Part shown: positions 1,110 through 5,690 of the stretch, piece by piece
Numbering within the stretch: position 1 is the first letter of the stretch
Layout: each line of letters starts with the position of its first letter
Sequence record: MK962750
Source: Shigella phage CM8
Reading direction: 5' to 3' (one strand)
DNA length: 64,000 bases
Made by a program: the position numbers and the translations under genes
Notes under the pieces: model-generated
Told to the model about the DNA's origin: nothing
Database searches by the model: none
Seen by the model: the letters and a program-made list of their open reading frames with translations, nothing else

Positions 1110-1703
1110 TTATTTCAGAGAATTAATGTATTCCTGAACATCGGCAGAGGTAGTTTCAACCCCAGAAATATTACCGTTAAAGGTTTCAACTCGAGCAAGG
1201 GTATCTTCAATATCAACCTTAGTCAGTGCTGCAATTTCAACTACATCATCAGCAGTACTAATTCCAAGGGCATTTGCTGCACGAGTTTCACGGATATATT
1301 CCAATTTAACTGCAAGTTCTTGGCGAGCATCATCCAATTCAACTACTTTCTTGGCGATTTCAATTCGCATTTCAGCATAACCATCAGCTTTAGTAGTCAA
1401 CTGTTCAGCTGTTCGACGATATAGCAAGCCGAGTTTAGCATGCATTGTTACATCTTGACTTTCAGAAAGAAGCTTGCGAATTTCACGCTCTTTTGATTCG
1501 GCCTGTCGATTCTTTTCGACAATAAGTTCACGAATACGTTTTTCTTCATTAATAGATTTAACAGAAGCAGTTTTTAGATCTTTAATTTTATCAAGTAGTT
1601 TTGCTGCTGCAGCAGTATACTGTTCTTCGACAGATAGATTTTTAGCCATAGCAGAACCAAGTTTAGTGCGAATAAACTCAACAATTTTCTTCAGTGTGTT
1701 CAT
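1110..1703 (-). CDS. coiled-coil protein with weak PspA/IM30-like character
   Basis: 197-aa ORF rich in heptad-like charged helical sequence ([27 protein letters not shown]...), RBS AAGGAAA before ATG, hairpin terminator just downstream. Family assignment is tentative. Confidence 0.55.
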
Positions 1704-2255: not shown

Positions 2256-2329
2256 TTCATTCTCCAAGTTGTTTTCTGTATCAGTAGTTGATAGTTGTAT
2301 AGTACCATGGAAGGACAAGGATGTAAACC

Positions 2330-2390
2330 GTTTTGTGAAAAAATTTTTAAAAAGTTTTGGGGAATTCTAGGGCAGGAAGGGGAAATCAAA
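2330..2390 (-). promoter_or_regulatory. early-promoter-like element related to the repeated core
   Basis: Contains tgtaaaccgttttgtgaaa; minus strand gives GTTTACA - 17 nt - TACTAT upstream of gene 1992..2255. Coordinates approximate. Confidence 0.45.
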
Positions 2391-2465
2391 GGATAGGATA
2401 ATATATTATAAAGGGTAGAAACTAAATGATGTCTAGAGAGGCCTGGAAAGGCCTAGATACCAAAA

Positions 2466-2489
2466 AGCCCCAACCTTTCGGTCGGGGCT
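2466..2489 (-). terminator. hairpin terminator downstream of the internal-protein-like gene
   Basis: On the minus strand 10-bp stem (one G-U) with GAAA loop; identical 31-bp element repeated near 3017-3047. Confidence 0.6.
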
Positions 2490-2496
2490 AAGAATG

Positions 2497-3044: not shown

Positions 3045-3353
3045 AAGCCTTGCGGCAACCTTGTCGGGGTTCCACCTGCTAAGGCAAGTGTTTGTACGAA
3101 ACGCCGGGATTCGAACCCGGTTATTAAGCAGTTGACGCTACTCAATATTTTTAAAAGGCCATATCTCGACCATATCCGAACGTTCCGTCAAAAACGCTAC
3201 TCGGCTTACGGCAAAGATATTTCCTCGAATCGATAATTCGGTGCGCCGTTTCTGCTGTGATGTAAGAGGGCATCAATAAACGCAAAGATTATTAACGCAA
3301 TTCCTTACTCAGGGAACATCAGTCCGACGACTTACCGGTAGCGACCCGGTTTC

Positions 3354-3704
3354 TTAATATTCTTTTAAAGCATCAATCTGTTTACGGCGTTCACGCCATA
3401 AATCAATTGCTTCATACGCGGATTCAACATTTCGAATTGGACGGCATTTATATAAAGATTTGTGATTTTGATATTGCGTAGATAACGGAATTTTATCTAA
3501 AAGGTCTTTACGTTCAAAGTATTCGTAACCATCTAAGCCAAATGAACGATTTTTGAGAAATTGCCAATGACCAAATTCGTTTTGAATATAAATATAATCC
3601 GCATGTTGATAAAGTAAATTAATTTCACGAAATGAGATATGTTTTTCATATTCATTGAAGTAAAATGTTAAATCATGAACTACTAAATAAACATTACCTT
3701 TCAT
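3354..3704 (-). CDS. hypothetical protein (116 aa)
   Basis: ATG-initiated ORF immediately downstream of tRNA-Arg on the minus strand; no motif recognised. Confidence 0.55.
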   Translation of the reverse strand: MKGNVYLVVHDLTFYFNEYEKHISFREINLLYQHADYIYIQNEFGHWQFLKNRSFGLDGYEYFERKDLLDKIPLSTQYQNHKSLYKCRPIRNVESAYEAIDLWRERRKQIDALKEY

Positions 3705-3722: not shown

Positions 3723-3798
3723 TGGTCGAGGCAGTAGGGATCGAACCTACGACCTAGGACTTAGAAGGTCCTTGCTCTTCCTTCTGAGCTATGCCCCG
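3723..3798 (-). tRNA. tRNA-Arg (anticodon UCU)
   Basis: 76 nt folded by hand: 7-bp acceptor stem CGGGGCA/UGCCUCG, anticodon arm AGGAC-CUUCUAA-GUCCU, T-arm GUAGG-UUCGAUC-CCUAC, encoded CCA. Confidence 0.88.
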
Positions 3799-3802
3799 TA
3801 AT

Positions 3803-3900
3803 TGGGGTGACCGATGGGAGTCGAACCACCCGAGTCGCAATGACAATGGATTTACAGTCCACACCGCTACCTCTACGGGATAACTCCCCTTAATTCTTAA
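3803..3900 (-). ncRNA. unassigned stable-RNA candidate between tRNA-Ile and tRNA-Arg (tRNA-like, not a canonical cloverleaf)
   Basis: About 100 nt with no ORF, GGGGAG 5' end, TTCGA T-loop-like motif and CCCCA 3' end, but I could not fold a canonical T-stem or acceptor stem. T4 carries two stable RNAs of unknown function in its tRNA region (recalled). Confidence 0.3.
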
Positions 3901-3902
3901 TT

Positions 3903-3977
3903 TGGTGGCCCTGGGTGGAATTGAACCACCATCTGGCGATTATGAGTCGCTTGCTTGAACCTTCCAGCTACAGGGCC
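3903..3977 (-). tRNA. tRNA with anticodon CAU (Ile by analogy to T4, or Met)
   Basis: 75 nt: acceptor GGCCCUG/CAGGGCC, anticodon loop CUCAUAA, T-arm GGUGG-UUCAAUU-CCACC, encoded CCA. Confidence 0.8.
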
Positions 3978-3978
3978 T

Positions 3979-4054
3979 TGGTGCTGATTGACGGAATCGA
4001 ACCGCCGACCTTCTCATTACAAGTGAGTTGCTCTACCTACTGAGCTAAATCAGC
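3979..4054 (-). tRNA. tRNA-Thr (anticodon UGU)
   Basis: 76 nt: acceptor GCUGAUU/AAUCAGC, D-arm GCUC-AGUAGGUA-GAGC, anticodon loop CUUGUAA, T-arm GGCGG-UUCGAUU-CCGUC, CCA encoded. Confidence 0.9.
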
Positions 4055-4059
4055 AAAAC

Positions 4060-4149
4060 TGGCGGAGGCGATAGGATTTGAACCTATGAGTCGCCGGAGC
4101 GACTGCCGGTTTTCAAGACCGGTGCATTAAACCACTCTGCCACGCCTCC
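4060..4149 (-). tRNA. tRNA-Ser (anticodon UGA), long variable arm
   Basis: 90 nt: acceptor GGAGGCG/CGCCUCC, anticodon arm CCGGU-CUUGAAA-ACCGG, long variable arm, T-arm AUAGG-UUCAAAU-CCUAU, CCA encoded. Confidence 0.9.
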
Positions 4150-4155
4150 AAATAT

Positions 4156-4806
4156 TTATATATTGTTAATTTGATTTAGAATTCTTTTTGCTTGAGTATG
4201 ACTTACGCCAATATGCTTAGCATATTTAGACAATTCGCCACGTTTAGAAAAATCATATAATTTAGAAATTTCTATTCTTCTTTTTCTTTCATCCGCAGAA
4301 ACTTTTGCTTCGTTTGCTTTTGCTATTTTACGTTTAGCTTCTTGAGAATGAGTTTTACCAGCAAAGCCATTCTTCATTAATCCATTTGAAGACCATCCTT
4401 TTAATTTTCCGTTAGAATGTGCCTTTTTAACACCCAATGAAATTAATTCGCGTTGCTGATCTGTCATAGGATAATTATTTATATGATCCCATCCACCTTC
4501 ACCTCCAAGTTTTAAATTATACACATCTGGTCTATTTAAAAACTCTTCTGTGACAATATTTTTCTCGGCTTCAAGCATAGATTCTTTATCGTCAAAATAC
4601 TCTAATATTTCTTTAGAAAAATTTTCTATACCATATTTATCTTGGGCTCTTTTTAATAATTTACCAGAACCCATATATCCATCATCTAAATTTTCGGTAG
4701 AATGCACACCAATATAAATTTTATTATTAATTTTATTTGTTATTTTATAAAGATAAAAATGCATATCAGTCCCTAATAAAGAACTGAGCGTCTCACGACG
4801 AGTCAT
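4156..4806 (-). CDS. segB: GIY-YIG homing endonuclease (SegB-like) inside the tRNA cluster
   Basis: FYLYKITNKINNKIYIGV...YMGSGK is a GIY-YIG motif; 216 aa; sits between tRNA-Gly and tRNA-Ser, as recalled for T4 segB. Confidence 0.75.
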   Translation of the reverse strand: MTRRETLSSLLGTDMHFYLYKITNKINNKIYIGVHSTENLDDGYMGSGKLLKRAQDKYGIENFSKEILEYFDDKESMLEAEKNIVTEEFLNRPDVYNLKLGGEGGWDHINNYPMTDQQRELISLGVKKAHSNGKLKGWSSNGLMKNGFAGKTHSQEAKRKIAKANEAKVSADERKRRIEISKLYDFSKRGELSKYAKHIGVSHTQAKRILNQINNI

Positions 4807-4810
4807 AAAT

Positions 4811-4884
<74 letters not shown>

Positions 4885-4889
4885 AAATT

Positions 4890-4976
4890 TGGTGCGAGAA
4901 GTGGGACTCGAACCCACAAGGAAATCATTCCGCAGCATTTTAAGTGCTGTGCCTTTACCAATTTGACCATTCTCGC
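4890..4976 (-). tRNA. tRNA-Leu (anticodon UAA), long variable arm
   Basis: 87 nt: acceptor GCGAGAA/UUCUCGC, anticodon arm CAGCA-CUUAAAA-UGCUG, T-arm GUGGG-UUCGAGU-CCCAC, CCA encoded. Confidence 0.88.
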
Positions 4977-4982
4977 GCTATA

Positions 4983-5591
4983 TTATTTATTACGTGAAAA
5001 AGACTGTTCTATCAATTCTGGACACTTTCGTTCTATCCATTTTCTAGCTTTTTGTGGGCTTATACCTATTATTTTAGCAGCTTTACTAACCCATCCAAAT
5101 TTAGAATAATCGATTTTAACTAATTCTTCGTAAATTTCATCAGTTAAAATCTTTTCATTAATATTTACCAGTAAATGATATAATTTATTATCATTAGCAA
5201 TTTTAATGAATCTTTTATAGTTTCCGCCTTTACTTAAACCTAATGAAGTAATTGCAGATGATATAGTAGCCGAATTTAATAGTGCGTTTAAAATTTCTTC
5301 ATCACTAACATTATAACGCTTTTTATTATTTTTAATATTTTTACCAGCAAAAGTATCAGTTTGCGAATGGCAGTTTGGACATAATAATCTTAAATTTGAT
5401 TTAAGATGATTTTTGTTATTTCCATCAATATGGTCTAATTGCAGAACAATATGCTTATTTTGCCATTTTGAAATTTTACAAATTGCACACTCATATGGAA
5501 AAATATTTTCTTTTATTATTTTGTCTTTCAGCTTTCCTGTACTAAAATTTGGATGTTTTCCTTCAAAAATTTCAGCTAATTTAGTATCCAT
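4983..5591 (-). CDS. HNH homing endonuclease
   Basis: LQLDHIDGNNKNHLKSNLRLLCPNCHSQ is an HNH motif; ORF track start is TTG, first ATG is residue 9; directly upstream of tRNA-Leu. Confidence 0.75.
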   Translation of the reverse strand: MDTKLAEIFEGKHPNFSTGKLKDKIIKENIFPYECAICKISKWQNKHIVLQLDHIDGNNKNHLKSNLRLLCPNCHSQTDTFAGKNIKNNKKRYNVSDEEILNALLNSATISSAITSLGLSKGGNYKRFIKIANDNKLYHLLVNINEKILTDEIYEELVKIDYSKFGWVSKAAKIIGISPQKARKWIERKCPELIEQSFSRNK

Positions 5592-5690
5592 AATATGATT
5601 CCCAATTATTAACAAAGGCTCTCTAACAAGAACCCTTGATGATAGAGGGTATTAATCAGTGCGGTATGAGTTAATAATAACAAATAATTC

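Follow-up and report, generated by a model that had tools for sequence, protein, structure and literature searches.

A hybrid tRNA-Tyr/tRNA-His gene remnant in the tRNA array of Shigella phage CM8, the apparent scar of a single 269-bp deletion

Here, we analysed a window of 64,000 nt of Shigella phage CM8 (record MK962750), and found that an 87-nt element in its tRNA array is almost certainly a hybrid gene, the scar of one 269-bp deletion which, as read from sequence alignments, joined the 5′ part of a tRNA-Tyr gene to the end of a tRNA-His gene. The deletion cost the phage three tRNAs. We regard an origin by one deletion, combined with a putative SegB-type trigger and a presumed pseudogene outcome, as the joint best explanation, and hold it with good confidence. 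The features are collected in Table 1.

Table 1. Coordinates of the hybrid gene, its parts and its neighbours (window positions unless another record is named)
Feature	Position	Strand	Remarks
Hybrid tRNA gene remnant	3803..3889	-	87 nt; Tyr(1-73)::His(last 14); sequence GGGGAGTTATCCCGTAGAGGTAGCGGTGTGGACTGTAAATCCATTGTCATTGCGACTCGGGTGGTTCGACTCCCATCGGTCACCCCA
tRNA-Tyr-derived part	3817..3889	-	acceptor 5′ strand, D arm, anticodon arm, long variable arm, 5′ T-stem strand, T loop
GUA anticodon of the tRNA-Tyr-derived part	3855-3853	-	
Junction repeat GGTTCGACTCC	3817..3827	-	11-nt T-loop region; crossover somewhere within
tRNA-His-derived tail CATCGGTCACCCCA	3803..3816	-	3′ T-stem strand, 3′ acceptor strand, C73, CCA
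Hybrid junction reading			GGTTCGACTCC followed directly by CATCGGTCAC
13-nt spacer AATTAAGAATTAA between CAU tRNA and hybrid	3890..3902	-	same spacer ahead of intact tRNA-Tyr in teqhad-type phages
Upstream neighbour, CAU-anticodon tRNA (Ile2-like)	3903..3977	-	ARAGORN; Rfam 59.9 bits
Downstream neighbour, tRNA-Arg(UCU)	3723..3798	-	ARAGORN; Rfam 66.1 bits
SegB-like GIY-YIG homing endonuclease ORF, 216 aa	4156..4806	-	within the tRNA array, 270 bp from the hybrid
rnaD (species 2 RNA) homologue	3240..3354	-	115 identical bases over T4 rnaD positions 4-119 (116 positions)
rnaC (species 1 RNA) homologue	3095..3233	-	137/139 identical to T4 rnaC
Strong intrinsic terminator after rnaC	3044-3021		terminator-like, 10-bp stem and T run
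IME339 hybrid copy	MH051915, about 1499-1586	-	

The first-pass annotation had described an ORF-free interval of about 100 nt between tRNA-Ile and tRNA-Arg, and both the position and the absence of coding sequence hold: the tRNA-to-tRNA gap around the hybrid measures 104 nt (3799-3902) and is overlapped solely by mechanical ORFs of 28-36 aa. The landmarks it had listed, namely a GGGGAG start, a GTGGA-CTGTAAA-TCCAT hairpin, a TTCGA motif and a CCCCA end, are all present on the minus strand. ARAGORN labelled the upstream CAU tRNA as Met. Its best E. coli matches are annotated tRNA-Ile genes (81.6% over the full length), and therefore the name tRNA-Ile is reasonable; identity with T4 tRNA-Ile is only about 65%. 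Overall, ARAGORN and Rfam gave six tRNA genes in the window, and ARAGORN found no other tRNA-Tyr, tRNA-Asn or tRNA-His gene within it. Some sub-threshold Rfam hits were set aside as artefacts: the Plastid-ycf2 hits on the plus strand (3905-3977, 3981-4054, 4892-4976 and others) are antisense of tRNA genes, and the sX4 hit (4028-4157, minus strand) coincides in part with tRNA-Ser and tRNA-Thr, in sense orientation; all of them reflect tRNA-like sequence and are no RNAs in their own right.

When the 2-kb region was compared with Tequatrovirus phages such as KIT03, the identity reached 99%, yet the close matches all aligned in at least two pieces. At the same site, KIT03 (AP018932) carries the array Met(CAU)-Tyr-Asn-His-Arg, and RB68 carries Met-Tyr-Asn-Arg. 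Aligned with these two phages, the window follows tRNA-Tyr exactly up to and including GGTTCGACTCC, and then continues with CATCGGTCACCCCA, an ATTA spacer and tRNA-Arg. This tail is identical to the 3′-end of tRNA-His in KIT03 and teqhad, as are the ATTA spacer and the tRNA-Arg gene behind it. On the other side of the joint, bases 1-73 of the hybrid are identical to positions 1-73 of teqhad tRNA-Tyr, and together with the 13-nt upstream spacer they match the intact annotated tRNA-Tyr at 86/86 positions in at least 30 phage records. The suggestion that the element is tRNA-derived was thus borne out, as such a match is not due to chance, and the anticodon that had been read from the hairpin as GUA was correct, the Tyr part being identical to an intact tRNA-Tyr(GUA).

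In teqhad, the 11-mer GGTTCGACTCC is present in both tRNA-Tyr and tRNA-His, 269 bp apart. We deleted these 269 bp in silico between the teqhad repeats and obtained the window hybrid with 0 differences. The same deletion in KIT03 gave the window sequence except for one base, Tyr position 41, where the window allele (C) is found in the intact Tyr genes of at least 30 records. Because the KIT03 tRNA-His copy of the repeat has one different base (GATTCC), the crossover can be narrowed to the last 3 nt of the repeat, TCC. From Tyr, the deletion took the 3′ T-stem and acceptor strands; tRNA-Asn was lost entirely, along with the Asn-His spacer and the 62 nt at the start of tRNA-His. The 5′ segment of the element comes from one tRNA gene and the 3′ segment from a downstream tRNA gene of the ancestral array, the junction lies within a short sequence common to both parents, and the genes between them are gone. 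The reconstructed ancestral form of the array is tRNA-Ile2(CAU) - tRNA-Tyr - tRNA-Asn - 115-bp spacer - tRNA-His - tRNA-Arg. Taken together, these alignments show, at the level of sequence, that the joint was made by recombination between two 11-nt direct repeats in the T-loop regions of Tyr and His. The earlier proposal of a decayed tRNA was therefore right about a tRNA remnant and wrong about gradual decay, the cause being a single deletion that fused Tyr and His.

In bacteria, tRNA-His normally has a gene-encoded G-1 which pairs with C73. The tRNA-His genes of KIT03 (2306-2381, minus strand) and teqhad have T, not G, at DNA position -1, and their discriminator is C73. The Asn-His spacer (about 115 bp; KIT03 2382-2495, minus strand), which is absent from the window, includes a short perfect palindrome (GTGACAACTGTCAC) as well as the hexamer TTGACG. 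This spacer could carry an internal promoter or a processing signal for His-Arg, which would also have been removed by the deletion.

We then searched 50,697 phage records with a 38-nt junction query, designed to exclude seeding by either parent gene, and only IME339 was matched. The Tyr part is carried by about 608 of the records and the complete Tyr-Asn-His stretch by 187, and the hybrid occurs in just 2 of the about 608 records with this Tyr sequence. The exact junction patterns were absent from IMG/VR (two patterns) and from metagenome contigs, in scans whose positive controls worked, while a wider 22-mer scan returned 127 loci, all of them intact genes. In IME339, the junction stands in a context with tRNA-Pro present, no segB and T at Tyr position 41, an allele which occurs in intact genes too, and the downstream ORF is identical to that of the window at 319/351 positions. 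The two hybrids are compatible with separate deletions at a hotspot as well as with a single deletion and later recombination.

The D arm, the anticodon arm (5/5 pairs, 7-nt loop, GUA) and the long variable arm of the hybrid are the same as in the intact tRNA-Tyr. In contrast, the acceptor stem in the normal register has 3/7 pairs versus 7/7 in intact Tyr, and the T stem has 3/5 versus 5/5, which agrees with the first reading that a canonical acceptor or T stem could not be formed; the discriminator at position 73, in register, is C. ARAGORN called no tRNA in 3799-3902 with default settings or at a 95% threshold. The bare acceptor, anticodon and T stems sum to +4.1 kcal/mol in the hybrid and -23.0 kcal/mol in intact Tyr, and the best folds with these three stems enforced have -3.6 and -30.7 kcal/mol, respectively. 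Left to fold freely, the hybrid reaches -29.2 kcal/mol, with a stability no greater than that of shuffled sequence (z = -0.67), and its minimum-energy fold contains neither the acceptor nor the T stem. Pair probabilities in these two stems (ViennaRNA) do not exceed 0.002 in the hybrid, against 0.86-0.998 for intact Tyr. Compared with a canonical class II tRNA-Tyr, the hybrid lacks the acceptor stem with discriminator and CCA, the T stem with a 7-nt loop, A73, and detection at default settings. We infer that the hybrid does not fold as a tRNA because the 5′ strands of Tyr no longer match the 3′ strands of His.

The Rfam tRNA model (RF00005), run at a permissive E-value as the covariance-model check that had been proposed for the element, gave the hybrid 22.7 bits, short of the gathering score of 29, in an alignment with the wrong register. 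Given that even the intact phage tRNA-Tyr scores low in Rfam, with tRNA-Sec as its best reported match (30.9 bits), the covariance-model score is a weak discriminator here. We also compared 127 homologous loci from IMG/VR and metagenomes, selected by a 22-mer over the variable arm and the T loop. The acceptor stem was fully paired (7/7) in 126 of them, and all 127 had 5/5 T-stem pairs with a 7-nt T loop. These environmental homologues show 12 distinct stem combinations with the pairing kept, indicating compensatory change under selection. Moreover, A73, a major identity element for TyrRS, is present in 127/127. The fold models thus suggest that the hybrid likely acts as a natural tRNA pseudogene whose function is lost, although it may keep some residual function.

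The hybrid lies only slightly under the limit of tRNA detection. At a threshold of 90%, ARAGORN did report a tRNA-Tyr(gta) at 3804-3889 in the window, with the 3′ side shifted by one base and a 5-bp T stem including one G.U pair. In this shifted register, the T stem runs from G60-C77 to G64-C73 and closes an 8-nt T loop, UUCGACUC, while the acceptor has 5/7 pairs, with mismatches G3.A and G6.G, and is directly followed by CCA without a discriminator. The in-register pair count alone would suggest a completely dead tRNA; this lower-threshold call, which offers a shifted-register near-cloverleaf, calls for a softer verdict. It also leads to a different reading, in which the hybrid is a working, non-canonical tRNA-Tyr(GUA) that would be usefully processed and charged in the one-base-shifted fold and would have been improved in IME339 by compensatory mutations. 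The untouched D, anticodon and variable arms agree with it, and the shifted T arm retains the equivalent of G53-C61 and the UUCGA of the loop. The IME339 copy adds to this. Its His-derived tail has A82 changed to C and one extra C, neither of which is found elsewhere among 422 records (86-nt query); these changes repair the G3.A mismatch, improve the shifted acceptor stem to 6/7 pairs and restore C+CCA, and ARAGORN called this copy tRNA-Tyr(gta) at a 92% threshold.

However, according to ViennaRNA the shifted cloverleaf is less stable than the minimum-energy fold by 11.4 kcal/mol, and none of its pair probabilities exceeds 0.002. The window copy has no discriminator ahead of its CCA, A73, invariant in the 127 homologues, is replaced by C, and the T loop is 7 nt long in every one of those homologues. 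The scarcity of the hybrid among the records with this Tyr sequence also speaks against a useful tRNA. As for IME339, the tail changes could be compensatory mutations and could reflect selection for residual function, but they fall within a C run and could be sequencing errors. A working tRNA is therefore an unlikely reading; of the non-canonical tRNA considered in the first-pass annotation, what stands is a distorted cloverleaf that can be drawn when the T loop has 8 nt, and this cloverleaf is without A73 and thermodynamically strongly disfavoured. A milder form, in which the hybrid, with its 8-nt T loop and mismatched acceptor stem, is a crippled but evolvable tRNA with some tRNA-Tyr activity or value as a decoy for nucleases cutting in the tRNA-Tyr variable loop, under repair by selection, is doubtful and ranks slightly lower in our judgement. 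If it were true, the window would hold the raw deletion product, and IME339 a version with a re-paired acceptor and a rebuilt N-CCA end.

We considered whether the junction might be an artefact, either an assembly collapse between near-identical T loops or a deletion that arose during propagation on a laboratory host for which phage tRNAs are dispensable. The array is repetitive, the junction sits in an exact repeat and is very rare in databases, and IME339 was grown on BL21(DE3). Nevertheless, sequencing reads are much longer than the 11-nt repeat, which makes a collapse unlikely, and the same junction is present in the independent IME339 record with another Tyr allele, another array and a divergent downstream ORF. 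Moreover, a laboratory deletion would still be a real hybrid gene. We consequently hold an artefact to be very improbable.

Least credible is the reading as a stable RNA akin to RNA C or RNA D of T4, or as a novel regulatory or decoy RNA that resembles a tRNA: the element does lie in a transcribed tRNA operon and has complete anticodon and variable arms, the latter being the Septu cut site in tRNA-Tyr (PMC13096335), but it has no sequence of its own, each base coming from Tyr or His, its fold stability is ordinary (z = -0.67), its conservation is limited to two genomes, and rnaC and rnaD, nearly identical to those of T4, lie elsewhere (3095-3354).

T4 has the gene order Ile - segB - Arg - rnaD - rnaC. 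The identity with RNA C or RNA D that had been suggested for the element was ruled out, as T4 rnaC and rnaD align at 3095-3233 and 3240-3354, downstream of tRNA-Arg (rnaD reading from 3354 to 3240 and rnaC from 3233 to 3095), and not at 3803-3889. T4 rnaC and rnaD resemble the hybrid in being small non-coding genes of the same operon with tRNA-like 3′ portions, but they have no sequence relationship to it. Between tRNA-Arg and rnaD lies a 116-aa ORF (3354-3704, minus strand) without a Pfam match, whose stop codon abuts the start of rnaD. This ORF is identical to KIT03 at 351/351 nt and to IME339 at only 319/351, and T4 has no ORF there.

The SegB-like ORF of the array shares 83% identity with T4 SegB over its N-terminal 117 aa, the catalytic half (E = 5e-69), and matches the Pfam GIY-YIG family with 26.8 bits (cutoff 22.6). 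It lies between tRNA-Gly and tRNA-Ser, where T4 and IME339 carry tRNA-Pro. Because its C-terminal half is unrelated to T4 SegB, its target preference may differ. The site of T4 SegB is 27 bp long with GGTTCRANTCC as its 5′ part, and the enzyme cuts just after CCAR at the 3′-ends of tRNA genes; it favours a site in T2L tRNA-Asn over those in tRNA-Tyr and further tRNA genes, which are weaker (PMC2330249). The repeat GGTTCGACTCC fits the GGTTCRANTCC core of this recognition consensus (PMC2330249), so that the SegB motif of the repeats is accompanied by a SegB-type gene in this genome. We propose that a double-strand break by a SegB-type homing endonuclease was the probable initiating lesion, and that its repair by resection and annealing of the flanking repeats would have produced the deletion. 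A SegB cut after the CCA of Tyr or Asn falls between the two 11-nt repeats, and precisely this deletion would then result from resection and annealing. As an alternative route, slippage of replication from one repeat to the other would lead to the same product. KIT03 has the same SegB-like gene alongside an intact Tyr-Asn-His array, which indicates that SegB is not sufficient for the deletion and keeps the SegB step a proposal.

The hybrid would probably still be transcribed as part of the polycistronic tRNA precursor, and an RNase P cut at the 5′-end of tRNA-Arg would then set the 3′-end of its transcript. With the acceptor/T-arm stack missing, efficient cleavage at the 5′-end of the hybrid itself is improbable. 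The hybrid RNA would be poorly processed and poorly charged, and it would likely be degraded.

Some further observations concern endonucleases in the array. The SegB cleavage motif RAWTSGAAC also occurs in the rnaC T arm (3108-3116), in tRNA-Thr (3994-4002) and in tRNA-Gly (4826-4834). An HNH-like ORF of 210 aa (4983-5615, minus strand) scores weakly against HNH (17.3 bits; cutoff 21.4) and contains a CxxC...HxxxGN...CPNCH motif. It lies directly upstream of tRNA-Leu, where KIT03, IME339 and T4 have tRNA-Gln, and seems to be another insertion of the homing-endonuclease kind in the array.

McClain and Foss (Cell 1984, 38:225-231) reportedly described hybrid tRNA genes in deletion mutants of phage T4, formed via short sequences common to two tRNA genes. 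Those hybrids resemble the present one in that a deletion in the tRNA cluster of a T-even phage joined the 5′ part of an upstream tRNA to the 3′ part of a downstream tRNA. They differ in being laboratory mutants which involve the eight tRNA genes of T4 itself, whereas the window and IME339 are sequenced isolates. T4 lacks tRNA-Tyr and tRNA-His, the parents of our hybrid, and these parents are too dissimilar for the stems to re-pair. A deletion-made hybrid tRNA gene is thus a known kind of event, of which we report a natural example with tRNA genes absent from T4. Compared with the intact class II tRNA-Tyr(GUA) of KIT03, teqhad, RB68, T2 and T6, the hybrid has the common alleles at positions 1-73 and the same place after the CAU tRNA, but it takes its last 14 nt from tRNA-His and has lost A73 together with the canonical acceptor and T stems.

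The tRNA-Tyr/segB locus of T6 (PMC13096335) and the homing of SegB (Brok-Volchanskaya et al., NAR 2008, PMC2330249) share with our case the locus, the kind of endonuclease and the GGTTCRANTCC repeat. In T6, the tRNA-Tyr/segB segment is amplified through SegB breaks and UvsX/UvsY recombination, with microhomology at the repeat junction, which was proposed to facilitate the recombination (Chihara et al., Nat Commun 2026, PMC13096335). What these papers describe is tandem amplification or homing-associated replacement, whereas here a deletion destroyed tRNA-Tyr and the part played by SegB is putative.

With its crossover in a SegB-recognised motif, the hybrid is a natural example that fits the idea of tRNA arrays being remodelled by deletion as well as by amplification. 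For Tequatrovirus genomes of this type, it explains an annotation gap, the 104-nt interval of the tRNA array at which tRNA finders stay silent. The tRNA-Tyr of T6 counters the Septu defence, and T4, which is without tRNA-Tyr, cannot escape Septu (PMC13096335). Given that the tRNA-Tyr is lost here, by analogy with T4 and Septu we predict a greater sensitivity of the phage to defences whose target is tRNA-Tyr cleavage, and this predicted sensitivity bears on the prediction of host range and on the choice of phages for therapy.
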